From Catajapyx aquilonaris (lineage: Eukaryota): a stretch of DNA of 35,448 bases. The stretch lies in the NCBI GenBank assembly GCA_000934665.2, contig JYFJ02004026.1, positions 1 to 35,448 of the forward strand, in the 5' to 3' direction. The position numbers were made by a program, and so were the translations under genes. The notes beneath the pieces are model-generated. The model had not been told where the DNA came from. It ran no database searches and saw only the letters and a program-made list of their open reading frames with translations. Numbering within the stretch: position 1 is the first letter of the stretch; the number at the start of each line of letters is the position of its first letter. This document shows positions 3,424 to 35,448 of the stretch, piece by piece.

Positions 3424-4573
3424 ATGGACCCAGGGGATGTTGAGGAGTGAGTATTACGTCTGCAGTAATTGTCGCACTCGCACTTGGGTGCGTACATAGC
3501 ACATTGATGGAATTGAGCTTGCGGATATGACAGGAAAGACACTTCATGTGTTACATGCTACTTTTTTTTTCCCTTCATATTTCACAGGAGCACAAGCATG
3601 ATGGAGGTGAAACAAGAAGGGCGTGGTGATGAGGATGTCGCTCTTGAGGAGACGTGGACACTTGCGAATGAGGACATCTCGCCACACCTTCATCCGCATT
3701 CAGTGGGAGCAGTGGAAGAGGTCAGCGGCATTGAGGTGGAAGAAGAAGCATCGGTTACCATATGGGATGCCCCTGATGATGAGGATGATCCCTTGGCCAT
3801 TACGGATCAAAGGACCAGCAAGGTGGGTAGGCATGTAGAACAAAACAAGACATAAGAAATCTAATGACTGTTTGTCAAGGATTTTACAATAAGAACAACA
3901 CCATCACGACATTTCCCTATGAGGGGTAGTCAGCGATGGAGGGAAACAGAAGGATTTTAATTTATAAATTGTTCGCAAATATCTTGTTACCATGCATTCA
4001 ATTGTATTCCAGAGAGAACGAAGGATGGCTGATGGAGAAATTCAGACTGGAAGCGGCTTGGAAAAGGACACACGGAGAACTCACACCCGTCGTATTTGCC
4101 CAAAGGAATTTCACGATGCTTGTAATTTGGGAAGGCATGAGCGCATACACACAGGGGAGAAGCCATTTAGTTGCGAAATTTGCAAGAGCGAGTTTAAGCA
4201 CGCGTCTACTTTGGAAAGGCATAGTATGGTACACACTGGGGAGAAGCCCTTCAGCTGCAATAAAAAGTTCAAGGACTTGACAGATTTGACACGGCATAGT
4301 AGAACTCACACTGGGGAAAAGCCATATGGTTGTCAGATTTGCAAGAAGACGTTTAGTGCACGATCTAGTTTGATGAGGCACAAGAAGGTGCATATATTTG
4401 GGGAGAAGCCGTTTACTTGTCAAATCTGCAACAAAACGTTCAAGCAATCAAAAAATTTGGATTCACATGTGAGGTGTCACAAAGAGTCTTCATTGTTAGA
4501 TTCGGAAGATTTATTTGGTCAGACATTCAAGGATGAATGTACCGGAGCAACTAAAGATTTGCAAGGAGAATAG
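3424..4573 (+). CDS. C2H2 (Kruppel-type) zinc-finger protein, 3 exons (3424-3446, 3588-3822, 4013-4573)
   Basis: Splices GA|GTGAGT..ACAG|G and AAG|GTGGGT..CCAG|AGA keep frame. Acidic N-terminus (MEVKQE..), then five fingers with TGEKP linkers; fingers 1 and 3 each lack a Cys. Confidence 0.8.
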
Positions 4574-5680: not shown

Positions 5681-5822
5681 ACTACTACAGCTGTTACTAC
5701 TACTACAACGACTGCAGTAGCTACTTTTACGACTACTACTACTACTTTACAGTACTACCACTGCTACGTACTACTACTACGTACTACTACTAAGAGCTAC
5801 TACAGTAGCTACTTATACGACG

Positions 5823-5856
<34 letters not shown>

Positions 5857-6216
5857 ATAAGAGCTACTACAGTAGTTACTAACTACTACAGTAGCTACTA
5901 ACTACTACAGTAGCTACTTATACAACTACTACTACTACCAAGAGCTACTACAATAGCAACTAATACTGCAGTAGCTACTACTACTACTACTACGACTACT
6001 ACTACTACTACTATACTACTACTACAGTAGCTACTACTACTATCAAGAGCTAATTATTAGCTAGTTATTAGCCCTTGCTACTACTATACTACTGCTACTG
6101 CAGTAGCTACTACTACTTTACTACTACTACTACTGCAGTAGCTACTACTACTTTACTACTACTACTGCAGTAGCTACTACTACTATACTACTACAACTAC
6201 TACTACAGTAGCTACG

Positions 6217-6266
<50 letters not shown>

Positions 6267-6297
6267 ACAGTACTACTACTGCTACTTTTACTACTAC
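5681..6297. repeat. Degenerate (ACT)n microsatellite, about 615 bp
   Basis: Long ACT/TAC runs interrupted by recurring ACAGTAGCT and AAGAGCT units. Confidence 0.95.
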
Positions 6298-6414
6298 TGG
6301 ATAGGGAAGCTGCCGCCATCTGTTGAGGAATAAGACAACTAAAATGTCCTCAATTCAGCGCCGCCATGCGGGATATTTCCAGCCAGCCCTTTTCTGTTGG
6401 CAACACTTGCAGGC

Positions 6415-9020
6415 ATGGCATCCAAGATGGCGGCGCCCTTCAGGTGCGAAAATTCCTGGTTTGCATTGCGGTCTTGAAGCATAATTATTGTTGGGGCAAT
6501 TGGAGGGATGAGTGGCCAGTCTGGTTGGCTTAAGGAGGAGCCAGGATGCTGCGGGAAGGCACCAGGAGTAGAACCGGGCAGGTCAGGACACCACAGAGGC
6601 TTGCCCGCAGAGTAAGGATGAGAAGCCGGCCCAGCATGAAATAATGTCATACTTTGCGCCTTTCCACCAGTTGGAACGTGATGATGGACGGCGTGGCAGT
6701 CAAGACCGAGCTGGTCGATGATGCCCAAGACAGAGGAGGAGGAGGGCTTGTACCGGGCATTGGTCCGCAATGGGTGGTCAAGATGGAGGTGAAAGTGGAG
6801 CCGGAGGAGGTCGGGTTCGCTGGACAGCCGCAGGACATTGTTGTGGTCCAAGGTGAACCGAGCCGTTACCAGCAGGACGACGGAAGCCGGAGGAACAAGT
6901 GTCAGGATCAGGTGCGGTAATCTCCTGAGAATCAGTCGTAGCAAGATCAATAAGCCCATACTAAAAACTCTTGAAAACGCTTCATGCGAAAGATCATACT
7001 CGTACTGTAACGCTGTCTGTGCAACCGCAAAGCCTCCATTGTTTGCCAAACTAACTTAATCTTTAATTTCAGAAGCCAACAAGCTCACAACTTGGGAATA
7101 CATCACGCAACGAAGCCACGACTGGACACATTCTGTTCATGCCACTCGAAGTGAAACCCAAAGTGGTTGCTGATCAGTCCGTTGGTGTAGAGAAAGTTAA
7201 TTGGAAGAGGGCAGCTGCATATCAGGAGAAGCAAAAGGTAACTAGAGTGTGTCGCAGTACAGAGTACCTAAGTGGGTAGCTCAGTACTTGGGGAAGAAAT
7301 TTACTCCTTCACTTTGTGCACCTTTCGAACATCAAACCCTATTCTCGCATGGCTGCCACTTGGTTACTATTTGTTGCTATTTTTTCAGGGGTTACTATTT
7401 GCTTCCTATTTTTAATTGATCTGTAAAAATACTATAAAATAGTGTTGGGCAGTTCATCAGGGTTCATCTGGTCGGAACGACTATATAGTCTTGTGGCCAT
7501 TTCTGTTTAAGAGGGTTTTGATCGTCGTGAATTTTGCGGCCGGGCTCTTGCTCCTATTCCTTTGCAAAACAGCGTGCGGAGGAGAAGCGGATTCAGGCAG
7601 AAATGAAGGAGAAGCTTATCCGGGAGGTGAAGGCACGGCCCACCCTCTGGGACAAGCACCGGAAGGACCACAGAGATCGGGAGCTGGTTGAGACCCTGTG
7701 GGACCAAGTGGAGCAGGCCATGGCGGGCTCTATGACCAGTAAGTACCAGCTCCTGCCGAGGAGTCACTTAATCAATGGAAAATTTCGCGAATGTCAGGCA
7801 AATTTTCTGTGCCAGCAATGTCTCGTACTTACGAAGAATTCATACGTAACTTATCTGATGACATTTGGGAAACTTTTTTATTTAATTTTGTGGGTACGCC
7901 CCCAGCAGATTTAGTTACTTGAGACTAATTGCAATTCTCTAATTGTCAGAGGCCACATGCAAGTCGTTGTGGAGGAATTTGGTAGACATCAACAGACGAG
8001 CCTGCCAACAGGTCAGCATGGGAATTAAGAGTGGTCGGGAGGGCGTAAAGTCGCGGTTCTACGAATTGCTGGAATTCCTCGGGGGACGAGGAGCGAACAT
8101 GGAGTGAGTATCGCTACCAATGCAATACTTTACAGACCCTGTTGAGTCAATTTGCCGAGATTGTGATCATTACCAATATTTTGTGTTGTAAATTGCAAAT
8201 TGCGAATGTTCATTTTGCAAAGATGTAATTATGCACCTCTCTTTCATGGTAAAGGACTTCATGTAACGAAGTCCTCCCCAAGCGTGCATCAAACGGAGCG
8301 GAAGAAGAACTTGTGGCCATTACTAGCCCGGACTCGTTACAGACTGATGAATCATTAGACACGACATTAGCGGATGATCCTCTGAGAGTTGATTCTTTGC
8401 CCCTTCCCATGACTGAAACTACAGCCGTTTCCGCAACACCAACCTTTTCCAATTCCTCGACACAGACTCTCAACAATCATTCCCACGACATGGGACCTAA
8501 AAAGAAACGGAGAAGGATGGAGGGAGTGGCCACGCCGCAGACTGCTGCACCGACAGGGTCTGCACCGCTAACGTCAGTGGATCACCTTTTGATTGGATTA
8601 TTGAACAACATTCAAGCGTACGTCAGATGAAAAACTTCAGTATCTTTTCCCTCCAGTAACATGTCTTTTGTCAAATTTCCACCTGCAATCTTGCATCCGT
8701 AACAGTTCATTGTTATTTTACTTGATACGCCCTACATATTGAAACAGCATCGTCACACGTTCACAATGACTTGGTGCTGGGAAAGTCATCACGAATGTTG
8801 TTTTAATCGAGTAATCACACTCGTTGTTCATAATTACTGTTTTTTTCTTTCTTTCAGGTGAATTGTTCGGAAACCATCAAGATTCAAAAGCCTTTCGAAG
8901 TACGTGGAATCCATCTACTCGGAATTTCCAGATGACAGAAAGATGGCGTTCGAGCGTGAGGTCGTACAACTGGCGTGGGAGTACCGGGAAGAATTTGTAC
9001 CAATGACATTGGACAGCTAA
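6415..9020 (+). CDS. MADF-domain transcription factor with BESS-like C-terminal exon (exons 6415-6443, 6671-6911, 7073-7237, 7573-7738, 7950-8103, 8255-8617, 8858-9020; in-frame TGA at 8859)
   Basis: All junctions keep frame. KLIREVKARPTLWDKHRKDHRDRELVETLWDQV..CKSLWRNLVD..FYELLEFL fits the MADF pattern. LSKYVESIYSEFPDDRKMAFEREVVQLAWEY resembles a BESS motif. YY1-type CAAGATGGCGGC at the start. Confidence 0.75.
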
Positions 9021-9102
9021 TAAATGCCCAAAATCCCAAAACCTGAATCATAATGTACGATGTATGATAATGTACGATGTACGATGCATAATGTACAATG
9101 CA

Positions 9103-9241
9103 CAGTAGAATCTCGTTTATCTGAACTAGTAGAATCGCATTTCTTCTTAAATTGTCGGACGTTTCGGCTTAATATGAAAATCAGTTATGTAATACAAAGC
9201 TACTTAAAGCTCAAGCGCTTTTAATTAATGCGATTCTACTG
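9103..9241. mobile_element. Degenerate Tc1/mariner-pogo-type MITE
   Basis: Inverted termini CAGTAGAATC..GATTCTACTG; the TA TSD is not intact. Confidence 0.4.
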
Positions 9242-9509
9242 CGACGATAATGTTTCTTCTCCCAACGAACCACTTTTCCTTTCATACTAGTAACTTATTA
9301 AAAGCACATGTTGTAATGTTGTGTTAGTACATAATAAATATTTTTGCATTTTTGCAAGTAAACAATCTTGTGTGGCTGTTATTTTTTTTTTTAATATTCC
9401 ACTGGATTATTCCCCACTCAAAATTTGGACGGTTTGTATTATTATTATTTTTTTAATTATCACTTTTTGAATTGCGAGTTGCTCCTAAGTGACACCCTCT
9501 CAATTTCAG

Positions 9510-10701
9510 CATGTGGACCCCATCGTATTGTTGTACCAGCTTGTATACTGCGATGATTGTGACGGAGCTTTTGCTACCAAAAAGGACTTGGAACGTCATC
9601 GGTTGAGGAAGCATGTCACGTCTGCGGCTGAGGTGAGCAATTGTAATTGTATGAATTTTAATACTATGCTGTACATCATCAAAAGATGTGTAATCGTACG
9701 CGATGGTTGTTTTCGTTAGATCATCACATTTTTCAGCCAAAATAGCTGCCAATAATGAAAGAGCGAAACTGTTCCGCTATTGCAGATTTCATATGGGGAT
9801 TTCCACAATAATACACAATATGTAACATTGCCAGTACGGAGAAATAAATTGTACGTGCACATTTCAGGAAGGAGGACCAACAGCTGAGAGGACGGTGCAG
9901 AAGCCGGCACTGACGGATATACCACATCCCCGGGAACATGCGGAAGGAAAACCATGCAATTGTCTGATGTGCAAGAGTTCATCTCCGGTGTCATCTACTT
10001 TCAAAACGCATCCCGCAATTGGTTGCGAGATTTGCTCAAAAACGTTTAGGCAAACAGCTCATTTGACGAGGCACATTAAGACGGTGCATGCAGGGGAGAA
10101 GGCTTTTGTGTGTCAGATTTGTAAGAAAAGGTTTAGTGACAGGTCTTATTTGAAGAGGCATGAGACGAGTCATACGGGGGAGAAGCGGTTCAGTTGTCGT
10201 GTTTGCAAGAGAGAGTTTAGGGAATCGAATAATTTGACGTTGCACATGCGAGTGCACACTGGGGAAAAACCGTTCCGTCGTGGCGTTTGCAACAGACGGT
10301 TCAGTCAGTCGACGCACTTGGCCGTGCACAAGAGAGTGCACGGAGCTCAGATGAAGCGGTTCAGTTGTCACGATTGCGATGCGAAATATAAATATTCGAC
10401 CAGTTTGGCCAGGCATATGAAGAATCACGCTGGCGAGAAGCCTCACTGTTGTCAGATTTGCAAGAAAGCATTTGGCCAGGCATGTGATTTGAGGAAGCAC
10501 AGTAGAATTCACACGGGAGAAAAGCCTTTTAGCTGTGATGATTGCGATGCGAAATTTAGCGACTCGTCCAGTTTCGCACGACACAGAAGGCAGCACACTG
10601 GCGAGAAGCTTTACAGGTGCCAAGTTTGCATGAGAACGTTTAGCAGGTTGTCGTATTTGACAAACCACAAGAAGATGTGCAATGAGTTGCCTCGGAGCTA
10701 A
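9510..10701 (+). CDS. C2H2 zinc-finger array (about 9-10 fingers, some degenerate); exons 9510-9632 and 9868-10701; no start codon of its own
   Basis: Phase-0 exon containing YCDDCDGAFATKKDLERHRLRKH splices GAG|GTGAGC..TTTCAG|GAA in frame to a tandem TGEKP-linked array. AATAAA near 10765. Confidence 0.8.
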
Positions 10702-12188: not shown

Positions 12189-13276
12189 AGGGATTCGCTA
12201 CACCTACGCTGCCTGTGCAAAAAATAATAAAATCGCAATAAATTCCCTCATACAAAACACAAATCGTGTGGTTGGTATCTCTTTAATATTACAGCAAATG
12301 TAATCCACTTGTATGAAATTACCAGTAAGGAAATTCATGAGCGATTATGTTGCTGCCAAATTTATGTGACGGAATAGCCGAATGTATGTGCAAGGACAGC
12401 AAACTCTACTTTTGAGCCACATACATTTCTATTTCAGTGTTCCGCCTCTTGATTATTCTCATTACACGTGTTATGCATACAAAAATCAACTGGCATAACT
12501 TTGTACCATAACCAACAATCATGAGCATACATTTTTCAACCAAATAAGCACCGGAAATCACATTTAGAACTAACAAACACATAAGTAGAAATGGCAGAAA
12601 ATATCAATCATCATAACAAGACCCAAGTGTCAATCATACGGATCTTATCCAGTTTCACGTAGACTTATTCAACTCAATATTTTAACTGCAAAATGTGCCA
12701 ACACTTTGCAGTTGTCGTACAGAGATTTGCAACTCCACACGGTAAGAACAGCTACTAAACTGAAACAAGCTGGCTCGTACGTTTAAGATTATAGCATACA
12801 AATAATAATAATGTTCTTAGGAACTGAAAGATCACGCATCTGTGATCTGTCATAAAATAAAGTGATGCTTTTATCACAACATGAAAATGGCACGACCAGT
12901 TAGACGCTCATTTAAAACAAACATATTTAAAAAAATAACACAGGTTCTTTCAAAAATTATCTGCACATGTTCTTGGCACAAATGTGAGAGAAATACATTC
13001 GGCAATATTTTTAAACTTGTGCATTTAAAAAAACAACAACATGAAAACTGTTGACTGTAACATTTGTGTACGCATGTGGCAGAAGAAATCATGACAGTAA
13101 GTCATGCCTTTTTACGGAAAAAATCTAAATGAGCAATAATTTTTGAGGTTAATACATCTTTTTGGCAAACATAACCCTTGCCAATCTGAACACCCAAAAT
13201 GACACAACTGTAATAATCATCCGGAATATTTTGACTGCTTGGAACAGGATTCTGCATATGTTTTCTCAGCTGAAAG

Positions 13277-14052
13277 TTACTGCCGCCTCCTTCTGTCAGG
13301 ACTCTTTGACCTTGCCCTGGTCCTCTCCCTTGGAGATGAGCTCCTCCTGGCTGGACGATAACGAGGTGGGCAGAGCTCCCTTCGGAATCTCAGATGGCCC
13401 CTCCACCTTCTGGGTGGTGTTGGTGGAAGCGGGATCCGCCTTGAACCCCACCTTCTTCCTACATAAGGCGGTGGTGCTGGTGGCAGCACTACTGATGACA
13501 AAGCCGGACCTGGTAGGACTTCAACCTCCCAACCATCAATTTGTCCTCCATCCATATGCTTAATAGCCTGTGCTGCTGACTCAGGAAACTCATACTCTAC
13601 GCAGGCATATCTGTTATGCGGATTGTACGAAGAGATGATATCCACACTCTTCACCGTTCCATACGAAGAGAAGATTTCCACCAAATGGTCCTGTAAATAG
13701 TGACAGTTTGTATAATAATTTTCTTTATTAATTCGGAACATCTCACCTTGTTAACGTTCCTTGTAAGGTGCATGACACGTATCTTGGTTGGTTGTGGTAC
13801 TGGCGGCCTCTCTTTGCGGCTTTGAGCATCCTTCTCACTTGTTGGCCTCTCAGCGTCAGAACTGTAGCTCGTCACGGTTGAAGATGAGGTTGTTGAGACC
13901 TCGGATGATGATGAAGAGCTTGAAGAGGATGAAAGGCTGCTGGAAGATGTGGTACTGCTGGAGTCGCTGTCACTTGAGGAATCACTGCTCGAGACATTCT
14001 TCGTCCGTGGCATCCTCTCTGCATCAGTACGTCGCTGCATCGTGCGACTCAT
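13277..14052 (-). CDS. RNPS1: RNPS1-like splicing/EJC factor (Ser-rich domain, RRM, Arg/Pro/Ser tail); exons 14052-13747, 13690-13277; upstream exon donor at 14271
   Basis: Poly-Ser N-terminus, then PTKIRVMHLTRNVNKDHLVEIFSSYG..AIKHMDGGQIDG, matching the RNPS1 RRM. 56-nt GT-AG intron in frame. Confidence 0.8.
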
Positions 14053-14090
14053 ATCTGCAGTTATAATATGCATGTAAATATTGTTCCATT

Positions 14091-14152
14091 GAAGGGCCAT
14101 GCCCTGGTACGGGGTACGAAATAAATAAAATTAAAAAGAAAACAAAAAATAA
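14091..14152 (+). mobile_element. 5'-truncated retroposon tail in an RNPS1-like intron
   Basis: Hairpin AGGGC-cat-GCCCT, ACGGGGTACG and an A-rich tail, flanked by 11-bp TSD ATTGTTCCATT (14080-14090, 14153-14163). Confidence 0.75.
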
Positions 14153-14369
14153 ATTGTTCCATTAACGAAATCTGTTTACACTTTTTGGAACACTTTCCCG
14201 AATGTTATTATATAACACCCCCGTTTCATGTGGAATGTTCTGGAACATTCCATACCCTTCCAGTACTCACCTGGACACAAACAGTGACGAATCCGAGGAC
14301 AATGAACGGCCGTAAAACGAACAAAGATCTCTTCCCAACTCGCAATAAGAACATCGAACTTATGACGAC

Positions 14370-16797: not shown

Positions 16798-18449
16798 CTA
16801 GAATCCATGGGCAAATCCATGGCGACGTTGGTGACCTCCCAAGTTCATGGCCCTTTTTCCATCTCGGAAGAGACCCTTTTCGGCTTTCAACAACTTGGAT
16901 CCCACGCGGCCCAGAATATTCTCCTCAGAAGATGAGCTGGAGCTACTGCTGGAGCTACTACTGCTGCTGCTTGAGCTACTGTGATGACGAGCCTTTGGAT
17001 GTCTCGTGGTGTGTTTAGGTCCGTGGTGACCAGGTCGTGTAGGCTTGGTTACTGGACGTTTTGTGGTGGGTGTGTGTCCTGGTCTCCTAGTTGAGCTCCT
17101 TGGGTGATGTTCTTCCGAGCTTGAGCTTGAGCTTGAACTGGAACTGGAGCTATGCCCATGTCCTGGCCGCTTTGTGGTGTGTTTGGTAGGGTGATGCGTG
17201 GTTGGCTTAGATGGTTTTCTGGTGGTTGGCTTAGTACTCGGTTGCCCCGTGGTGGGTTTGGTTGTAGGTTTGGTAGTGGGTCGCCTTGTGGTCGAGGTGC
17301 TTTTTGGACTATGTTCTTCTGAACTGGAGCTGGAACTGGAGCTGGAACTACTCCCACTGTCTCCAGATCCTGGCCGTTTTGTGGTGTGTTTGGTAGGATG
17401 ATGCGTAGTTGGCTTAGATGGTTTTCCTGTGGTTGGCTTAGTACTAGGTCGTCCTGTGGTGGGTTTGGTCGTAGGTTTGGTTGTGGGTCGTCTTGTGGTC
17501 GATGTACTTTTTATATCATGTTCTTCTGAACTGGAGCTGGAGCTAGAACTACTTCCACTGTCTCCAGATCCTGGCCGCTTTGTAGTGGGTTTGGTAGGAC
17601 GACCTGTGGTTCCAGGATGTCCAGTGGTAGGCTTGGTTCCAGGACGGCCGGTTGTAGGCTTGGTGCTAGGTTTCCCTGTGGTGGGTTTGGTTCCTGGTTG
17701 TTTGGTTGTAGGCTTGGTACTGGGTCGCCTTGTGGTCGATGTGCTTTTTGGGCCATCTTCTTCTGAACTGGAGCTGGAACTGGAGCTGGAGCTGGAACTA
17801 CTCCCACTGTCTCCAGATCCTGGCCCCTTCGTAGTGGGTTTGGTAGGACGACCTGTGGTTCCAGGATGTCCAGTGGTAGGCTTGGTGCTAGGTTTCTCTG
17901 TGGTGGGTTTGGTTGTGGGTCGCCTTGTGGTTGATGTGCTTTTTGGACCATGTTCTTCTGAACTGGAGCTGGAACTGGAACTACTTCCACTGTCTCCAGA
18001 TCCTGGCTGCTTTGTGGTAGGCTTTATGGTTGTTGAACTGGATCCAGGCTTCTTAGTGGTTGAAGTGGTTCCAGGTTTATTGGTGGTTGAAGTAGACCCA
18101 GGCTTGTTAGTGGTTGAAGTGGATCCAGGTTTTGTTGTCGTGGGTGTGGATCCAGGTCGATCTGTTGTACATTTAGTTCCAGGTTGGCTTGTGGTTGGCA
18201 TAGATCCTGGAGAACTTGTGCTGGAAGTCTCTGGCTGTTTAGTTGATGATTTACCTTCGTGAGATCCAGATTCCGAGCTGCTTGATGAGGACGATCCTCG
18301 ACGATCTGTAAGTGCAAATATGATTAAAGTTAATGTTGAATTGTAATCACCATTTTACAGGTCTTACCTGGATCATCTTGAGCGGATCCAGCTGCGATCA
18401 GTCCAATCACAACCAAGCAGAACACCACTTTCCTGATCTTTGAAGCCAT
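16798..18449 (-). CDS. Secreted mucin/glue-like Thr-Lys-Pro protein with poly-Ser-EE blocks, copy 1, 529 aa (exons 18449-18368, 18305-16798)
   Basis: Signal-peptide exon MASKIRKVVFCLVVIGLIAAGSAQDDP, 62-nt phase-1 intron, long repeat ORF with 6 S(n)EE blocks. CAATAAAAGG TATA-like box near 18505. Confidence 0.9.
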
Positions 18450-20826: not shown

Positions 20827-22257
20827 CAGTGGCGGAGCCAGGAGGGTGCTAGGGGGTGCGCAAGCACCCCTTTGAATAACCTCCGCACCCCCTTTCGCAC
20901 ACCTAAAAACGTGTCAAATAAAAGAGCAATTTTTAAAAAAATGTTCAGTACGCATTTTCCGGTCGGCACTTTAATGCAGTAAGTATAGGCTATACAGTAC
21001 GCTACAGGGTATATACAGGGAGCATATCACATGGTGAGTCCGTAACCACTAACCAGGCATGGGCGAATCTGACTCAACAGCTAGCAAACTGCCGTCCATC
21101 ATTATTGCAGAACCCATGCAGCGCGGGGGAGAGGGGGGGGGGGGGGGNACTCGAAAAGGCCGTGTTTCAAGCAGACTTTGGCTTTGAGTTACAGACAGGC
21201 ACCGCTCCGGTACCGCTCTCTCATCTAGGGATGGTTGCGACGGGTCCACCAGATGCAACAACCCATCTGGAGATACCGGAAGGATGGCAGTTGTACAGTT
21301 CGATTTATGAAGCTTGTTAGAACGATCACGGGGTAGGCTAGTCCTGCTCAAAGGTATATAGGTCAGCATTTCTTCACCGAGAAGTGACACTTGACAAATC
21401 ACGGTACTTCGTTCCTGTTCCTAATGGCCCACGCGCACCTTTGCTGGAATAATAATAATAAAAGGACACAATAATAAATAACAAAAAATTCAACAACCCC
21501 GGGTACTTTTATGGGCGTCTCTTTGCATTTCTGCCAACAATACGAATCTCCTGGTGTCGGAAACATTTGCATAGTGATTCGTGCTGAAGACAAGCACCAG
21601 CATGATAGGGTTACTTTTTTTGTCTTCAGTGTAATAGTAATATTATGCTGGCGCTATTTGTGACATATCTGTCACGAATCACGTATGCAAAATAATGTTT
21701 CCGACACCAGGAGATTCGTATTTGTTGTCCGAAATGCAATAACGAGACGCCCATAAAAGTACCCGGTGTTGTTCAATTTTTTGTTACTTATTATTGTGTC
21801 CATTATTATTATTCCAGCAAAGGTGCGCCATTAGGAACAGGAACGAAGTTCCGTGATTTGTCAAGTGTCACTTCTAGGTGAATAAATCCTGACCTGTACG
21901 CCTACCTTTGAGCAGGACTTATACCCCGCGATCGTTCTAACAAGCTTCATAAATCGTACAACTGCCCTCCTTCCGATGCATGTTTCTCCGGAATGTTGCA
22001 TCCGGTGGACCCCCCCCGAAATGTTTTAAATAGCATTAGAAATTACTAATTCCTGATTTATTTATTTTTGAAAAAGTGCTACCAATTTCATCAAATACAC
22101 ACCCATTCAAATTTCACATATTCACCTAAACTCGTGTGACCTTGAACCCCCAAAAATTCCCCCCCCCCCCCNCCCCCCCCCAAAATCGAAGCATCTCTTG
22201 CTAACGTTCGAGTCCCTTAACCGCACCCCTTGATATCTGAGGCTGGCTCCGCCACTG
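20827..22257. mobile_element. Non-autonomous hAT element
   Basis: Perfect 15-bp TIR CAGTGGCGGAGCCAG / CTGGCTCCGCCACTG with perfect 8-bp TSD TTAATTAG (20819-20826, 22258-22265). Confidence 0.9.
21242..22012. repeat. Foldback element: about 340-bp inverted arms with about 90-bp spacer
   Basis: 21242-21583 is an imperfect reverse complement of 21673-22012; termini GGGTCCACC / GGTGGACCC. Confidence 0.85.
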
Positions 22258-22837: not shown

Positions 22838-24369
22838 CTAGAATCCGTGGGCAAATCCACGGCGACGTTGGTGACCTCCCCAGTTCATGGCCCTTTTTCC
22901 ATCTCGGAAGAGACCCTTTTCGGCCTGCAACAACTTGGATCCCACGCGGCCCAGAATATTCTCCTCAGAAGATGAGCTGGAGCTACTGCTGCTACTGCTG
23001 CTGCTGCTGCTTGAGCTACTGTGATGCCGAGCCTTTGGCTGTCTGGTGGTGTGTTTAGGTCCGTGGTGGCCAGGTCGTGTAGGCTTGGTTACAGGCCGTT
23101 TTGTGGTGGGTGTGTGTCCTGTTCTCCTAGTTGAGCTCCTTGGGTGATGTTCTTCCGAGCTTGAGCTTGAGCTTGAACTGGAACTGGAGCTATGCCCATG
23201 TCCTGGCCGCTTTGTGGTGTGTTTGGTAGGGTGATGCGTGGTTGGCTTAGATGGTTTTCTGGTGGTTGGCTTAGTACTAGGTCGCCCCGTGGTGGGTTTG
23301 GTTGTAGGTTTGGTAGTGGGTCGCCTTGTGGTCGAGGTGCTTTTTGGACTATGTTCTTCTGAACTGGAGCTGGAGCTGGAGCTGGAGCTGGAGCTGGAGC
23401 TGGAACTACTCCCACTGTCTCCAGATCCTGGCCGTTTTGTGGTGTGTTTGGTAGGATGATGTATAGTTGGCTTAGATGGTTTTCCTGTTGTTGGCTTAGT
23501 ACTAGGTCGTCCTGTGGTGGGTTTGGTTGTGGGTCGCCTTGTGGTCGATGTACTTTTTGGATCATGTTCTTCTGAACTGGAGCTGGAGCTGGAGCTGGAG
23601 CTGGAGCTAGAACTACTTCCACTGTCTTCAGATCCTGGCCGCTTTGTAGTGGGTTTGGTAGGACGACCTGTGGTTCCAGGATGTCCAGTGGTAGGCTTGG
23701 TACTAGGTTTTCCTGTGGTTACAGGATGTCCGGTGGTAGGCTTGGTGCTAGGTTTCCCTGTGGTGGGTTTGGTTGTGGGTCGCCTTGTGGTCGATGTGCT
23801 TTTTTGATCATGTTCTTCTGAACTGGAGCTGGAGCTGGAGCTGGAACTACTTCCACTGTCTCCAGATCCTGGCTGCTTTGTGGTAGGCTTTATGGTTGTT
23901 GAACTGGATCCAGGCTTCTTAGTGGTTGAAGTTGTTCCAGGCTTGTCGGTGGTTGAAGTGGTTCCAGGTTTATTGGTGGTTGAAGTTGACCCAGGCTTGT
24001 TAGTGGTTGAAGTGGTTCCAGGCTTGATGGTTGTTGAACTGGATCCGGGTTTTGTTGTCGTGGGTGTGGATCCAGGTCGATCTGTTGTACATTTAGTTCC
24101 AGGTTGGCTTGTAGTTGGCATAGAACCTGGAGAACTTGTGCTGGAAGTCTCTGGAGGTTTAGTTGATGATTTGCCTTCGTGAGATCCAGATTCCGAGCTG
24201 CTTGATGAGGACGATCCTCGACGATCTGTAAGTGCAAATATGATTAAAGTTAATTTCGAATTGTAATCACCATTTTACAGGTCTTACCTGGATCATCTTG
24301 AGCGGATCCAGCTGCGATCAGTCCAATCACAACCAAGCAGAACACCACTGTCCTGATCTGTGAAGCCAT
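22838..24369 (-). CDS. Secreted mucin/glue-like protein, copy 2, 489 aa (exons 24369-24288, 24225-22838)
   Basis: Near-identical signal exon, intron and C-terminus to copy 1; 5 S(n)EE blocks. Confidence 0.9.
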
Positions 24370-24903
24370 GTTGAGGTCCAGATCCCACGGCTGAGTGTGA
24401 GGATTAACTGAGGGACTCCGGCCTTTTATTGCCACAATTGCTAGGTACGTAATCAGTTGATATACAGTATGTCACACCTGGTTGGTTTACGGTCAGACAT
24501 GAACATGTGCGAGCAGGAATTACCATTTTGCTTGTACTGCAGGTCTGTACTGTGACGATTTATTACTACAGAAATGTCACACTCTTGCAATGAATGGCTG
24601 TGAACAATGTAGGAAAATTCTGAGCAGACATTTTTCTACCAGATTGAGTGATAGACTGATAGAGGAAACATGTCAGGTGTGTTTACATGTGAGCGATTTG
24701 AACAACGAAATCTTCACCGAGGCTGAAATCAACAATCGATTTTCGCCTCAAACCATATTGATTACTTGGGTTACTCAGCCACGGCGAACATATCTCTCGT
24801 CAAATCGCTCACATGTAAACGCAGCTTCATAACCAACAATAGCATTACCCATAAGCAGAAATTGAAAATATCAATCATCAAAATCAAACCCAAGTATTAA
24901 TAT

Positions 24904-25186
24904 AATAATAATAATAATTCGTACCCCGTGACAAGCCGGCGGCTTTTTAGGGGATTTTTTTTGTTTTGTCTGGAACTCTTCGCTTTCACTTTTTACTTAG
25001 CTTTTTGGGATAGGATAGGGACGGAAGGCTGTGGCCTATTTTTACGGAAACAACTCCGGAATTCTCCTGGAGGAACCGTGGGAAACCACAGAAAACCACG
25101 GTTAGAGTTGCCGGCACCAGGATTCGAACCCAGGACCTCCCGATTAGCAGTCGGACTCCTTAACCACTACACCAACTGCTTCGGTT
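24904..25186 (-). mobile_element. tRNA-derived SINE, family A
   Basis: A box and B box (GGTTCGAATCC), (ATT)n tail, 15-bp TSD CCCAAGTATTAATAT. The empty site is visible in the paralogous sequence near 18968. Confidence 0.9.
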
Positions 25187-25686
25187 CCCAAGTATTAATA
25201 TTTCGGATCTTATCCAGTTTCACTTAGACACATTCAACTCCATGCTTTAACAATTTAACTGCCAAACTTGGAAAGCACATGAGTAAAATATATTATAGCA
25301 GTTGTATATTTCTTCGAAAATAATTGGTATATATGCTGCAATTGATAAATCTAATTTTTATTGTTGCCTTCATTGTTTTGCTCTTCATATCTCTAGAGAT
25401 ACACTGCCAAATCAGGTATATCGGGATATCGCAAGGAAAACAAAGATGTATGGAATATTGGAATGATAGGTGATCCCTGTACATCACCAACATAATCAGA
25501 TCATATTATGTTATTACAAAGAGGAACGGTTTTTTTCCCACTTCCATAACAAGAAGTGACCTTCCATAAAATGTTCTGGTACTTATTTCAACCTAAGAGA
25601 AATGTATTTTATTAGCCACTTCTGGAAACTGAGTCACGCTGGACTACACTTGGCAGGGATACGTATGTTAATTGTCAATCTTATTA

Positions 25687-25939
25687 GGGCAACACGGTGG
25701 CAGAGTGGTTAGCGCCGCAGCCTTCCACCTCTAAGGTCCCGAGTTCGATCCCCGGACCGGACAGAGTATGCTTATGTGGATAGAGTTTCGATGGGTTCTC
25801 TCCGTGTTCGCGTGGGTTTTCTCGGGGAACTCCCGTTTCCTCCCGCTATCAAAATCCATCACAGCGCAGGCAATGATTAAAGTCGGTTAAATAAAAGATG
25901 ATCCCCTAAGAGGCCCAAGGAGGCCTAGCACGGGGTATC

Positions 25940-26015
<76 letters not shown>

Positions 26016-26407: not shown

Positions 26408-26708
26408 ATAATGATAATAATAATAATAACATCTTACCCCGTTATCAGCCTTTTTCGGCTCTTTAGGGGGGGGTTTTTGTTTTGTCTGGAACTCTTGCTT
26501 ACATGTTTACTTTTTGCTTTTTGGGATAGGATAGGGAAGGAAGGAGGCGGCTGTGGCCTTTTAAATTAGAAAGCAACCCCGGAATTCTCCTGGAGGGACC
26601 GTGGGAAACCACAGAAAACCATGGTTAGAGTTGCCGGCCCTGGGGCTCGAACCCAGGACCTCCCGGTTAGCAGTCGGACCCTATAGCCACTCCGCCAAAC
26701 TGCTTCGG
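26408..26708 (-). mobile_element. tRNA-derived SINE, family A
   Basis: Aligns with 24904-25186; near-perfect TSD TTGAAA(T/A)GTATA. Confidence 0.88.
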
Positions 26709-27305: not shown

Positions 27306-29890
27306 TTAGTAGATACCTTGCACAAATCCAGGGCGACGTCGGCGGCCTCCCCAGTTCCTACCTCTCTTCCCACCTCGGAAAAGATCCTGTTCGCCCTTCA
27401 ACAACTTGGATCCCACTCGGCCCAGAATATTCTCCTCAGAAGATGAGCTGGAGCTACTGCTGGAGCTACTGCTGCTGCTTGAGCTACTGTGATGCCGAGC
27501 CTTTGGATGTCTCGTGGTGTGTTTAGGTCCATGGTGACCAGGTCGTGTAGGTCTGGTTACTGGACGTTTTGTGGTGGATGCGTGTCCTGGTCTCCTGGTT
27601 GAGCTCCTTGGGTGATGTTCTTCCGAGCTTGAACTGGAACTGGAACTGGAGCTATGCCCATGTCCTGGCCGCTTTGTGGTGTGTTTGGTAGGGTGATGTG
27701 TGGTTGGCTTAGATGGTTTTCTGGTGGTTGGCTTAGTACTAGGTCGCCCTGTGGTTGGCTTCGGTTGTGTTGTTGTAGGTTTGGTTCCTGGTCTCCTGGT
27801 TGAGCTCCTTGGGTGATGTTCCTCCGAGCTGGAACTGGAGCTGGAACTGGAGCTATGCCCATGTCCTGGCCGCTTTGTGGTGTGTTTGGTAGGGTGATGG
27901 GTAGTTGGCTTAGATGGTCGTACAGTGGTTGGTTTAGTACTAGGTCGTCTAGTGGTTGGTTTGAGTTGCGTTGTTGTAGATTTCGTAGTGGGTCGCCTTG
28001 TGGTCGATGTGCTTTTTGGACCATGTTCTTCCGAGCTGGAGCTGGAGCTGGAGCTGGAACTACTCCCACTATGCCCATGTCCTGGTCTCTTTGTGGTTGG
28101 CTTGGTAGGGCCAACTGTGGTTCCAGGATGTCCTGTGGTAGGTTTGGTTCCAGGATGTCCTGTGGTAGGTTTGGTTCCAGGATGGCCGGTTGTAGGCTTG
28201 GTGCTAGGTTTCCCTGTGGTGGGTTTGGTTCCTGGTTGTTTGGTTGTAGGCTTGGTACTGGGTCGCCTTGTGGTCGATGTGCTTTTTGGGCCATCTTCTT
28301 CTGAACTGGAGCTGGAACTGGAACTACTGCCACTGTCTCCAGATCCTGGCCCCTTCGTAGTGGGTTTGGTAGGACGACCTGTGGTTCCAGGATGTCCGGT
28401 GGTAGGCTTGGTGCTAGGTTTCCCTGTGGTGGGTTTGGTTGTGGGTCGCCTTGTGGTCGATGTGCTTTTTGGATCATGTTCTTCTGAACTGGAGCTGGAG
28501 CTGGAGCTACTTCCACTATGCCCATGTCCTGGTCTCTTTGTGGTGGGTTTGGTAGGGTGAGCTGTTGTAGGCTTGGATTCAGGACTAGCTGTTGTAGGCT
28601 TGGTGCTAGGTCGCCCAGTGGTAGGTTTGGAACTTGGTCGCCTTGTGGTCGATGTGCTTTTTGGGCCATGTTCTTCTGAGCTGGAGCTGGAGCTGGAACT
28701 GGAACTACTTCCACTGTGTCCAGATCCTGGCCGCTTTGTGGTTGGCTTTCTGGTTGTTGAACTGGAACCAGGCGTCTTAGTGGTTGAAGTAGTTCCAGGC
28801 TTGTTGGTGGTTGAAGTAGACCCAGGCTTGTCAGTGATTGAAGTGCTTCCAGACTTTATGGTTGTTGAAGTAGTTCCAGGCTTAGTGGTTGAAGTGCTTC
28901 CAGGCTTAGTGGTTGAAGTGCTTCCAGGCTTAGTGGTTGAAGTGCTTCCAGGCTTAGTGGTTGAAGTGCTTCCAGGCTTAGTGGTTGAAGTGCTTCCAGG
29001 CTTTATGGTTGTTGAAGTAGATCCTGGCTTGTGAGTGGTTGAAGTAGACCCAGGCTTCTTAGTGGTTAAAGTGCTTCCAGGGTTTATGGTTGTTGAAGTA
29101 GTTCCAGGCTTAGGGGTTGAAGTGGTTCCAGGTTTATTGGTTGTTGAAGTAGACCCAGGCTTGTCAGTGGTTGAAGTGCTTCCAGGCTTTATGGTTGTTG
29201 AAGAAGACCCAGGCTTAGTGGTTGAAGTGGTTCCAGGTTTATTGGTGGTTGAAGTGGTTCCAGGTTTATTGGTGGTTGAAGTGGTTCCAGGTTTATTGGT
29301 GGTTGAAGTGGTTCCAGGTTTATTGGTGGTTGAACTGGATCCAGGCCTCTTAGTGGTTGAAGTAGTTCCAGGCTTGTTGGTGGTTGAAGTGGTTCCAGGT
29401 TTGTGAGTGGTTGAAGTAGACCCAGGCTTGTCAGTGGTTGAAGTGCTTCCAGGCTTAGTGGTTGAAGTGGTTCCAGGCTTTATGGTTGTTGAAGTAGATC
29501 CCGGCTTGTGAGTGGTTGAACTGGATCCAGGCCTCTTAGTGGTGGTTGAAGTGGCTCCAGGTCTTGTTGTTGTGGGTGTGGATCCAGGTCGATCTGTTGT
29601 AGATTTAGTTCCAGGATGACTTGTGGTTGGCGTAGAACCTGGAGATCTTGTGCTGGAAGTCTCTGATGAACACGGGCGTTTAGTTGATGATTTGCCTTCA
29701 TGAGATCCAGATTCCAAGCTGCTTGATGTGGACGATCCTCGACGATCTGTAAGTGCAAATATGATTAAAGTTAATGTCGAATTGTAATCACCATTTTACA
29801 GGTGTTACCTGGATCTTCTCGAGCGGATCCAGATGCGATCAGCCCAATCACAACCAAGCAGAACACCACTGTCCTGATCTTTGAAGCCAT
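27306..29890 (-). CDS. Secreted mucin/glue-like protein, copy 3, 840 aa (exons 29890-29809, 29746-27306)
   Basis: Signal exon MASKIRTVVFCLVVIGLIASGSAREDP, expanded KPG(S/T)TSTT repeats, 7 S(n)EE blocks. Confidence 0.9.
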
Positions 29891-31248: not shown

Positions 31249-31477
31249 GCCGAAGCAGGTTGGCATAGTGGATAGGGCGTCCGACTGCTAATCGGGAGGT
31301 CCTGGGTTCGAATCCCGGGGCCGGCAACCATAACCGTGGTTTTCTGTGGTTTTCCACGGTCTTTCTAGAATAATTCCGGGGTCACTTCCGTATAATAGGC
31401 CACAGCCGCTTCCTTCCTTCCCTATCCTTGGAGGTTGAATGGCAAATGCTGGGCCAACCTCCTTAAATATCAATTAA
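31249..31477 (+). mobile_element. tRNA-derived SINE, family A head with a different 3' tail
   Basis: TGGCATAGTGG and GGTTCGAATCCC boxes, same body as 24904; 14-bp TSD AGTCACAGTCGGTT. Confidence 0.9.
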
Positions 31478-32666
31478 AGTCACAGTCGGTTCGATCAGGT
31501 TCAAAGTTCACGAGCAATGTCACCAGAAGTCAAATGGAATATTTGCAACTTAAAACATTTTATTACAATAATTACACAACATTTTGTAGTTACGTCACTC
31601 TCATCTGGAGCCGTCACATTGTCATCGACTCCACTTCTCACAGGGTGAAGTAGTTTACTTTGAGGACAATAATTATTATTTGCTTGTATGACTAGTAGTT
31701 GTGACAACTTCACTGAAAAAAAACAACTGATTTATGCATAGGTAATCACAATACGAGATCAGGAGATTTTCTATCTAATTTAAGTCGATTCAAATTGTTT
31801 CACAGGCCTCTTCACATATTATTGTTAATTTTCAATCATATGTGAAGCAATATTAATAATTTTGTCACTGGCGATGAAGCTCATATAATTTTTCATTATT
31901 GTAAAAAAAATTATTTTGGTTCACAATATTGTGTAATTAAGCAAACAAGGCAGGAAAGAGCCTCACAGGGCTTTTAGCACCATGATATTCACAATTTTGT
32001 GAATTTTAATATATAAAATATTTATGATGGCTACTTATTAGAGCACCTTCTCACTCAATTTGTTGCACATTCATAGGTGTGATCGACTGCTTGAAGTGAT
32101 GGCATTCGTAGTGAACAGTAAACAATTTCAACAATCGACCTTGGCATTAATTGAAATTCAAGTTGCGAGAAGATTATTACATGGAAAATTTTGCATGATA
32201 AAGATTGGATAATGTTTGACTTTTCGACCAATTTTGCAGCCATGCTAGGATTGATCAATCAGAAATTGGGTTTTCCTAATCATGTGACATTATTTTGTAG
32301 AAACAATGTCAAATAATAGTGATATACTTGTCATGTAGCTGTCTGTTAAGTACGTACATTGCCTTTCATTACTTTCCAATGAGCTTTTTAAATATTTTTC
32401 TCTGCAGGACCCAAATATTTTTTTATCCATACACTTCAGATCACCTATACACAATAAATAGCATCATATCATTTTATCATGCCTTTATTATACTGATACG
32501 TGACTACAAATTAGCATTAATACTTTGACCCATAATTATGGACAGGTTTCAACATAATATAATTCCGATGACATTGCACACACTTGCATGGTACATTACA
32601 TTTTATATTATATTTCACATAATTTGTATAGTAATAATTGAAGAAAAAGTTGCATAAGTATGTATC

Positions 32667-33490
32667 TTACCCGAAGTTAGTCATTGCCTTAAACATTTTC
32701 TTGCCCGCGCTCATCATATCATCATTCTTTTTTCCCTTCTTGGAATCTTTACTTTCATCACTAATTGAAATGCTGATGCTGAAGGATTCTGATGAGTCAC
32801 TGGACTTATGTTTCTTATTTGAGCCTTTCTTGCCCGAGCCAGATTTGTCATCTGAAGACTTGTCCTGACCTCCAGGAAACAAATTATTCTTACCACCTTC
32901 CTTTGAAATGCTCATTGAGAAACTCTCATCACTACTTGGAAACTTGGCTGTAAAATCATCTTTCTTTGGAAAGCTGGCTGAAAAACTATCATCTGACATG
33001 CTCATTGACATGCTACCATCATCCTTTCCATTTCCGGACATTTCCTTACTGAACGAAATACTGAGTGAATCTGACTCTTTGGACTTGCTGGAATCGTCAT
33101 GTTTGGAGAAGTGATCTTTAAAGTCGTGTATCTTGTCCGAAATGTTGTGCTCCGCTTGATTCATTTTGCTGGCAGCGTCCTTTGCTTCTTCCGAGCTGAA
33201 GCTGGGCTTGCTGATGTCCATGCTGATTGATTCAGAAGAAGAGGATGAGCTGCTTGCATGCTTCTGCGATGCTGAAGAGTCGCCTTTTGACTCAGAAGAA
33301 GATGATGGCCTTTCAGTTGTCGGCTGGACCCAGAATCCTGTAATGATAAAAGGTGGCTTATTTTATCACAGGCACAGAAGACAGTTTGGATCCAAAAGCA
33401 ACCCCTTTTTAAAAAAAAAGTCTTACCCATGTTGCCATGAGCCAATCCTACAATGATGAGTCCGGCCAAGATGAACGAGAGAGGAGCCAT
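32667..33490 (-). CDS. Secreted Ser/Asp/Lys-rich protein with (Ser-X)n motifs, about 244 aa (exons 33490-33427, 33337-32667; 3' end may be spliced)
   Basis: Signal exon MAPLSFILAGLIIVGLAHGNM and phase-1 intron join in frame to the 184-aa ORF. GATATAAGG TATA near 33556. The apparent stop lies inside GG|GTAAGA, a probable splice donor. Confidence 0.85.
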
Positions 33491-34203
33491 GTTCTGCTTG
33501 GTTTGGTAGGGATCTGATTCCAAGTGTGAGTCTATCCATTGGAGGACCCTTCCTTATATCTCCAAAAATGGGGACGTCACACGGTGCTGAACACTTGCGA
33601 GGAGAAACATTGGGTGATATATAGTAGCAGAATGTGTCTGGCTGTGTTGACGAATGGCTGTTGGGCTAGGTGGGAACAATGGCTGGGTTGACTCCAGATG
33701 AAATTATGGGCGGATTTGATGTGACTCTGCGGTCATGGGCAGTCGCATGTCATCCTGGATGGGTTTATTTTGTCAAGGGCACATTTTGCGTCATACTACT
33801 CCAACAGATGGGATTGACGAGCGGATTTTGAAGTAGGCCTATGTATGCCTTTTTAGCTTTGGTGCTTTGTCTCTTTGGTGGAACGTTTTGTGGCAGCTAA
33901 TAAAGTTGTACTACAGTATAGGCACATTCATATTAGACTAGTAATATTCTGTACATAAGGGCAAACTATCAATGATATAATTGATGCTTTATTGGCTTCA
34001 AAAATGATAAAATACATGATTTAAATGATTATAAATCATTAAATTATAAAATGTCGGGGCAATGTTTTTGGACGTTGCTGGTGACGATGCAAAGATTTAG
34101 TTATTTTCTAGAACAAAGATATGGGCCAAAGACGAGATAATGACAAATATATTCAATATAAAATACATATTTTAATGTATTGTTGGATGCAACAGTGAAA
34201 TAT

Positions 34204-34573: not shown

Positions 34574-35448
34574 GCAACAGTGAAATATAAATCCGGTAGC
34601 ATTATTTCAGTGTTAATTTTTTAACATAAGAGTTTTAACCATATTATATATTAGGCCTTTTTACACAACAAGGAAGGTCTGTAGGCCCAACTAAGTAGAT
34701 ATTGATTGTTGTAATTATTACATACATGATAAAATACATGGTATTGTTAGTGCAAGAATTTTAGTTTCATCTATAGTTTGCAAATTTATGACGTAGACTA
34801 GACACGACACTCTAGCGTTAGGTTAAAATTATGATGAAATTATTGTGCTTTTTTGTTCTTGTTGTATTCTGTGCACATTTCTGTACATGAAGGAGCAAAG
34901 TCACCATTAGTCAAATGGAATATTTGCAACTTAAAACATTTTATTATTGCATACCATTTTGAAGTTATTACATCACTTTCAGCTGGACACGTCACAATAG
35001 CATCAACTCTGCTTGTATCAGGGTGAAGTAGTCTACCATAAGGACAATAATTATTGGCTTGCATTTTGTGTGACTAGTAGTAATTTATGTCAACTTCATG
35101 AAAATTCCGTCATTATGTGAAGGCGATCACAATACGAGATCGAGATATTTTCTTTGTAATTTCATTTGATTCGACTTGTCCCAAAGGTCTGTTCATATGT
35201 AGTCCATATTATCGATCGTATTTGAACAAATATTTATTTGGTCATTGGTGATGCCCACAGGAGTTTGCGATATTGTCAACATTTTATTTTCGTTCACAGT
35301 GGTATACTTAAAACGCACACAAGGCAGGATAGTCCGGAGGTTAAGCGACTTCACCTTGCATTTTGGTATTAAAGCATGCCGCTTTGCTGAATGACAATAT
35401 GGACCCTCCCCTTCATTTTAAGAAATGTTGCCACGGTCGGAACCCGTG

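Follow-up and report, generated by a model that had tools for sequence, protein, structure and literature searches.

Introduction

Caddisfly silk carries a serine motif defined as (SX)nE (PMC10387566, PMC13267644), whose serines are phosphorylated and form calcium-stabilised sheets (PMC10387566, PMC4929942); a repeat described from a terrestrial caddisfly reads SESFSVSIE (PMC13045387). The calcium-bound (pSX)nE motif is regarded as a caddisfly adaptation to underwater spinning (PMC13045387, PMC10387566). The sequence S/T-X-D/E/pS is the consensus of the Golgi casein kinase, and the fly protein CG31145 is a kinase of this type (PMC3416761).

We analysed a window of 35,448 nucleotides (the whole stretch of DNA under study) that contains a gene for a serine-rich protein with a series of short blocks resembling the caddisfly motif. 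In our preferred reading, to which we give a probability of roughly 0.47, these blocks would be phosphorylated by Fam20C and would form calcium-bridged beta strands that, together with the products of neighbouring genes, cross-link a glue-, coat- or silk-like secretion.

Gene structure and predicted protein

The gene has two exons spanning 0.8 kb, and its product is 244 residues long (24 kDa). It comprises the following features.

33427 to 33490, minus strand: coding part of exon 1, with the start codon and a putative signal peptide of about 20 residues (hydrophobicity by eye)
33338 to 33426, minus strand: intron of 89 nt, GT-AG, phase 1 (splice-site letters and the join in a run-X5 contig)
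32667 to 33337, minus strand: exon 2, the mature protein (open frame and composition)
33105 to 33194, minus strand: predicted amphipathic helix, residues 70-99 (10-residue blocks with pLDDT as high as 90)
32670 to 32723, minus strand: predicted C-terminal amphipathic helix, residues 227-244, with a Gly end (model and hydrophobic moment)
32484 to 32489, minus strand: AATAAA poly(A) signal (3'-end contig of X5 terminating at 32481)

The signal peptide was judged by eye, no predictor being run, and the signal sequence of exon 1 is also retained in two paralogues, c2 and c4. The terminus of the 3'-end contig lies three bases beyond AATAAA. The mature part consists of 28% Ser, 14% Lys and 11% Asp, contains neither Cys nor Tyr, and has a net charge of -3; Gly accounts for 6.7% and Pro for 2.7%. 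The preliminary description had proposed a small secreted protein, with which the predicted signal exon and the length agree; its interval, 32667 to 33337, coincides exactly with exon 2 and leaves out exon 1 and the intron. We thus predict that this orphan gene encodes a small secreted protein.

A single-sequence fold model was poor overall (mean pLDDT 51, pTM 0.20). It places strands over blocks 2-6, at pLDDT near or below 50, and helices at residues 70-99 and 227-241, the former being its sole confident portion. The hydrophobic moment of residues 70-99 was matched by 5 of 5000 shuffles and that of the C-terminal helix by 9 of 5000; the Gly at the C-terminal end also occurs in paralogue c4.

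In the searches run, no relatives were detected outside the gene's own genome. Pfam searches with three proteins gave one sub-threshold match, to PdaC in a single protein (18 bits against a cut-off of 29.1), and a homologue search at E 0.01, confined to similar lengths, retained none of 382 candidates. There was no match to the 244-residue protein among 1.84 billion representative sequences. The Atlas held no usable match for it or for the neighbouring gene product N2, blanks in that resource meaning neither absence nor novelty. Two weak phage matches from a PDB profile search (E 0.034 and 0.44) were taken as chance.

Serine-alternating blocks

All six motifs named in the preliminary description lie in the minus-strand frame 33337-32667 and are real, the first being interrupted by Asp and the fourth having Ala as X. 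The acidic residue reported ahead of them is likewise present, Asp or Glu standing directly before five of the six and Gly intervening at the third. The blocks, which begin no more than 30 residues after the signal peptide, are as follows.

33216 to 33254, minus strand: block 1, residues 50-62, a Ser run and alternating Ser, (SX)6D
33042 to 33074, minus strand: block 2, residues 110-120, (SX)5E
32988 to 33014, minus strand: block 3, residues 130-138, (SX)4D
32967 to 32987, minus strand: block 4, residues 139-145, (SX)3 up to a Pro, without acidic cap
32898 to 32924, minus strand: block 5, residues 160-168, (SX)4E
32754 to 32792, minus strand: block 6, residues 204-216, (SX)6E

The five capped motifs are separated by 47, 9, 21 and 35 residues. 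When the composition was shuffled 100,000 times, five blocks of two or more Ser-hydrophobic units were reached in 5 cases, and the 15 units that those blocks contain in none. Local shuffles in windows of 15, 30 and 60 residues reached five blocks in 1, 0 and 0 of 20,000 trials, respectively. Among the non-Ser slots flanked by two serines, F, I, L, M or V fill 16 of 25, the overall figure being 38 of 161 (p 2e-6, hypergeometric). The pattern was defined post hoc from the sequence, which makes these p-values optimistic, not enough to matter. TCN and AGY serine codons are mixed within every block, and the array is therefore no simple DNA microsatellite; the motif pattern is real at the protein level.

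The distinctive feature is the capped hydrophobic alternation. Three (SX)4+E motifs with at least three hydrophobic X residues were found in none of 20,000 full shuffles and none of 20,000 Ser-fixed shuffles, and capped hydrophobic alternation was present in none of 120 kinase-family proteins, a weak control.

Acidic caps and predicted phosphorylation

Three blocks end in register with Ser-X-Glu and two with Ser-X-Asp, so that five of six carry an acidic cap (binomial p 0.003) and three of six a Glu (p 0.007). Since this Glu stands two residues after the last Ser, it would prime a phosphorylation relay along the strand. Applied to the 63 serines, the relay rule S-x-E/pS selects 28, compared with a mean of 4.7 in Ser-fixed shuffles, none of 20,000 of which reached 28. 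The preliminary description had drawn attention to the acidic element ahead of the blocks; the relevant one appears instead to be the residue behind them, as the mirrored Glu rule marks a single Ser against 28. With Asp included, the mirrored rule is mildly raised (28 against 14.1; 239 of 20,000 shuffles), and the three-residue spacings of CK2 and CK1 type stay at background level, with 11 and 15 compared with 14.1.

The genome encodes a Fam20C/CG31145 orthologue on contig C442. Thus, what was found is a putative secretory entry, a directional S-x-E/pS excess and a kinase gene in the same genome, and together these suggest that the protein is likely to be heavily phosphorylated. Its predicted net charge would then be -59.

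Paralogues, transcripts and probable contig adjacency

Three further copies of the window gene (c1) are present in the genome, all on contig C2025. Copy c2 is 95% identical to c1, which makes the conservation of blocks between the two uninformative. Copy c3 is inverted and has stops, and its signal exon was not found. Copy c4 is 55% identical and has an open frame given an alternative downstream acceptor. Pairwise dN/dS values among three copies are 0.41, 0.38 and 0.33. An extra intron occurs at C2025 16830-16890 (c4) and at about 3822-3890 (c3), where c1 and c2 have a continuous exon.

In c4, most of blocks 2-5 are missing and the final block has no cap in register; block 6 still alternates, with different X residues. 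The copy retains the Ser runs and the helix, and the relay rule gives a lesser signal for it (14 against 5.3; 140 of 20,000 shuffles). The array is therefore not essential to the family, and is either recent in c1 and c2 or lost in c4.

The gene family is transcribed and spliced: one contig of run X5 spans the intron junction in spliced form, with the letters of c2, whereas no contig of the DNA runs X1 and X4 is joined across the intron. X5 leaves the intron and the majority of intergenic bins uncovered. Its contigs match c1 without substitutions over 33033-33194 and over 32481-33062, the latter with one codon missing. The sequencing type of X5 is not on record, and its contig depth cannot rank genes.

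The end of the window bears on the placement of c2.

34893 to 35332, no strand assigned: second copy (72%) of 31512-31958 and start of the tandem unit that holds c2 on C2025 (alignment)
35330 to 35448, no strand assigned: one terminus of an element with inverted repeats and a target duplication of 3 bases, whose opposite terminus opens C2025 (depth)

Pieces on the upstream and downstream sides reveal a tandem unit about 3.4 kb long, and in DNA run X4 the interval 35330 to 35448 has a depth of 262 compared with about 20. One element supplies both the end of the window's contig and the start of C2025, as its two inverted arms, and the contigs are therefore very likely adjacent, with c2 a tandem paralogue of c1. 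That c2 is an allele was rejected, given that only about 1.9 kb aligned and that the contigs end in two arms of one insertion.

Several other features were recorded in these contigs. A tRNA-Ser called by ARAGORN at 31255-31326 sits in a very high-copy repeat, 31250-31428 (also at 25012-25184 and 26528-26708), with a summed depth above 200,000 against about 20 in run X4, and probably represents a SINE of tRNA origin instead of a genuine tRNA gene. Long palindromes, about 80% self-complementary and likely non-autonomous transposons, occupy 21242-22012 of the window and 21281-21615 and 28078-28409 of C2025. An ankyrin-repeat frame poor in introns, with a kinase-like frame after it, occurs twice on C2025, at 6523-9285 and 23855-26008, with more ankyrin frames nearby; from their motifs we take the kinase-like frames to be eIF2-alpha-kinase-like. 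The window also has an ankyrin frame similar to those of C2025 (14847-15710), plus-strand C2H2 zinc-finger arrays (3968-4573 and 9826-10701) and a degenerate (TAC)n array of 600 nt without open frame (5695-6298).

Neighbouring genes

Three genes in the window share promoter and signal-exon similarity with c1.

27306 to 29890, minus strand: N3, 840 residues, seven poly-Ser-Glu runs, a distant paralogue by promoter and signal exon
22838 to 24369, minus strand: N2, 489 residues, six poly-Ser-Glu runs (promoter and signal exon)
16798 to 18449, minus strand: N1, 529 residues, seven poly-Ser-Glu runs (promoter and signal exon)
33491 to 33790, minus strand: region upstream of c1, homologous to those of N1-N3 (global alignment)

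The 300-nt upstream regions of c1 and its neighbours align colinearly, with a TATA-like word near 33555-33560 and a 10-letter word common to the cluster promoters at 33652-33661. Global alignments between the promoter of c1 and those of its neighbours scored 128 and 132, and for neither N3 nor N2 did any of 832 real-DNA tiles attain the c1 score; c4 against N3 was weaker, 30 of 832 tiles reaching its score. For signal exons, the corresponding counts were 0 of 870 (c4 against N2) and 38 of 870 (c1 against N3). A genome-wide search with the promoter word gave 26 matches compared with 18 for the reversed control; six of the 26 are cluster genes, and the other 20 lack promoter similarity or a related gene. 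A single secretory gene is the likely ancestor of the cluster, whose members may be co-expressed. A Thr-rich gene on C2025 was rejected as a promoter relative (50 of 300 shuffles). At 12620-14210, C2025 holds a secreted-looking gene with an acidic Gly/Glu N-terminal exon and a Thr/Lys/Pro-rich exon that contains an assembly gap; its promoter is unrelated to those of the cluster.

At the position of the 62-nt intron of N3, an X5 contig is joined across; its letters are those of a sister copy. This join shows no more than the presence of both families in one sample. Past the last Ser run, at 16798-16870, 22838-22910 and 27306-27400, each neighbour has an amphipathic stretch with sites of Gly-Lys-Arg type, a possible processing site.

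The products of N1-N3 are rich in Thr, Ser, Pro, Lys and His, with 0-1 Tyr each, and carry charges of +48 to +98 when unmodified. Under the relay rule they would each receive 85-88 phosphates, giving net charges of -78 to -122 at neutral pH and of +49 to -13 at acidic pH. If phosphorylated, they would thus be polyampholytes, not plain cations. The preliminary description had paired the serine-rich protein with cationic neighbours. The link holds as common promoter and signal-exon ancestry, but "cationic" ignores the six to seven poly-Ser-Glu runs. Because the phosphate load reverses the neighbours' net charge, plain cation-anion pairing is doubtful; metal bridging in common, or a pH switch, fits better.

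Host lineage

We placed the host with a Fam20C tree of 33 rows, built from 32 of 120 matches, the named ones chosen across orders; three picked rows were dropped for short alignment, and the tree contains no caddisfly, moth or basal hexapod row. The host falls outside 23 winged insects (support 93/92) and outside nine crustacean-side rows (97/83). A lineage search with a RING-type gene gave 0 of 400, and matches to the COX1 family were fragmentary. Cuticle-protein matches were found for 66 of 70 candidates and gustatory-receptor matches for 107 of 111 scored candidates (714 candidates at first look). Only one weak match was obtained among 3 odorant-binding-protein candidates, and one among 15 for the odorant-receptor family, which scores higher as a gustatory receptor. 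Diplura have been reported to possess gustatory receptors in the hundreds while lacking odorant receptors (PMC13388675). On these sequences the host is not a caddisfly and is likely a wingless hexapod, a dipluran; springtails and proturans are compatible with the same tests.

Comparison with described systems

The likeness to the caddisfly motif is closer than originally claimed, in that three blocks are of the form (SX)4-6E and the caddisfly motif is itself (SX)nE (PMC10387566, PMC13267644); block 6 comes close to the terrestrial repeat SESFSVSIE (PMC13045387). As in trichopteran H-fibroin, the X residues are mostly hydrophobic or aromatic, n is about 3-6, the caddisfly definition giving 3-5, and the flanks are charged (PMC10387566, PMC13267644, PMC13045387, PMC4929942). 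H-fibroin genes likewise have a short first exon and a long second exon. In the caddisfly examples available, however, the last X ahead of the cap is hydrophobic, whereas here it is Lys, Asp or Met, and by our comparison it is charged in the three Glu-capped blocks.

In other respects the proteins differ. H-fibroin has about 8000 residues in repeated modules encoded by 18-30 kb (here 244 residues and 0.8 kb), and these modules number from tens to more than 100, against five capped motifs. Its spacers are rich in Gly or Gly/Pro, with 21-36% Gly compared with 6.7%. It also has a C-terminal Cys for linking L-fibroin, whereas this protein has no Cys. A conserved N-terminal domain of 105-117 residues is another feature of H-fibroin; the database searches with this protein gave no reliable match, to a fibroin or otherwise. 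H-fibroin belongs to Trichoptera and Lepidoptera, and the present host lies outside the winged insects. The L-fibroin profile PF05849 found no candidates in the genome, the control likewise being without a match anywhere. Its length, Gly content, lack of Cys and host lineage show that the protein is not an H-fibroin. A convergent origin had been suggested, and the likeness is indeed one of motif only; if the motif is functional, it probably arose independently of caddisfly silk.

The sandcastle worm cement proteins Pc-3A/B and the polycationic Pc-1/2/4/5 are secreted together and combine phosphoserine with Lys/His-rich blocks, comparable to the putative set here, and the Ser runs of 8-20 in the neighbours resemble, by description, the Pc-3B blocks of 6-12 (PMC9999432). 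That cement is Tyr/Dopa-rich and cured through catechol, unlike a protein without Tyr and neighbours with 0-1 each. Hydrophobic alternation is not described for Pc-3 in the available text (PMC9999432). Here, cationic and Ser blocks occur in one chain. The caseins and SIBLINGs, which are Fam20C substrates, are likewise secreted and disordered with S-x-E/pS clusters (PMC3416761, PMC8348777), to which the neighbours' poly-Ser-Glu-Glu runs may be compared; the likeness is one of pattern, and the hydrophobic alternation here suggests strands instead.

A proposed mechanism and its alternatives

In the preferred reading, the cap would prime the last Ser of a block, and each phosphoserine would prime the Ser two residues upstream, with phosphates coming to lie on one face of the strand and F, I, L and M on the other; we regard this relay as quite probable. 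Given the relay, the next step seems slightly better than an even chance. Phosphate repulsion would keep the chain soluble in the granule; after release, calcium or magnesium, or a rise in pH, would bridge the phosphate faces and the hydrophobic faces would pack together, much as has been proposed for the silk of caddisflies. In a third step, the mucin-like neighbours would supply hydrated, extensible bulk, bridged through their own poly-phosphoserine runs. For a dipluran-type host, we take a spermatophore stalk or egg glue to be candidate materials. In the literature searched, nothing usable was found on dipluran glands, stalks or silk, and the secretions of this group are almost unstudied at the protein level.

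Against this reading, c4 lacks most blocks, five motifs are few, the model strands are of low confidence, and there is no Cys or Tyr for covalent curing. In addition, the ordered calcium-phosphate spectrum of silk was not reproduced by a synthetic (pSX)4 peptide on its own (PMC4929942).

The protein could instead be a Fam20C substrate that stays disordered and acts as a sponge for cations or a granule scaffold, in the manner of caseins, SIBLINGs and granins, with the alternation serving only the relay. The S-x-E register signal and the predicted charge of -59 would be expected on this account, the model is mostly disordered apart from two amphipathic helices, and c4 keeps Ser runs and helix with few blocks. 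The scaffold comparison draws on granin biology. Yet a relay needs no hydrophobic X, and F, I, L, M or V nevertheless fill 16 of 25 slots, whereas the neighbours attain dense predicted phosphorylation by plain Ser runs; we consider this alternative unlikely. The same binary Ser/hydrophobic pattern would also suit amyloid-like self-assembly of unphosphorylated amphipathic strands, with phosphate as a solubility brake removed or screened at release; in the silks of spiders and silkworms, phosphoserine has been assigned the role of ending beta sheets or aiding solubility (PMC12976744). This seems improbable, as the relay would cover entire blocks, no phosphatase link was seen, and the capped form matches the caddisfly motif, in which phosphate is described as structural.

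There is only a slim chance that the protein is an acidic precursor of a short, amidated, amphipathic C-terminal peptide for defence or signalling, with the Ser-rich part as a masking or sorting propiece. Lys pairs precede the 18-residue amphipathic helix with its Gly end in c1 and c2, c4 also has the Gly end, Gly is the amide donor in C-terminal amidation, and the neighbours too have an amphipathic stretch past the last Ser run; however, the peptide would have a net charge of only +1 (+3 in c4), no family matched, and the blocks would go unexplained. Finally, it is most improbable that the blocks are a by-product, without special role, left by duplications inside a Ser-rich gene that evolves fast: blocks 3-5 do derive from a tandem unit of about 10 residues, of which c2 has one more, and these blocks are absent from c4, yet blocks 1, 2 and 6 differ in Ser codon patterns while having alternation and cap in common, and the alternation of block 6 persists in c4 with different X residues.

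Significance

By prediction, the protein would act as the caddisfly domain does, among phosphoserine/metal proteins of secreted materials. We propose, tentatively and as a rather doubtful claim taken whole, that a wingless soil hexapod independently evolved the caddisfly (pSer-X)n-Glu calcium zipper in a 24-kDa protein born within a cluster of paralogous secretory genes, and that the terminal Glu is the Fam20C primer in both animals. In the literature searched, which leaves most subscription papers outside, we found no link between Fam20C and caddisfly silk, although one may be in print. The proposal makes a direct prediction for caddisfly silk, namely that its Glu cap is the kinase primer. 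If true, the silk kinase would be named, and the toughening domain of caddisflies would gain a minimal model of recombinant size. Were the motif to have arisen a second time, in a small protein of a probable soil animal, it would count as a general solution that any secreted protein rich in Ser could reach given Fam20C.
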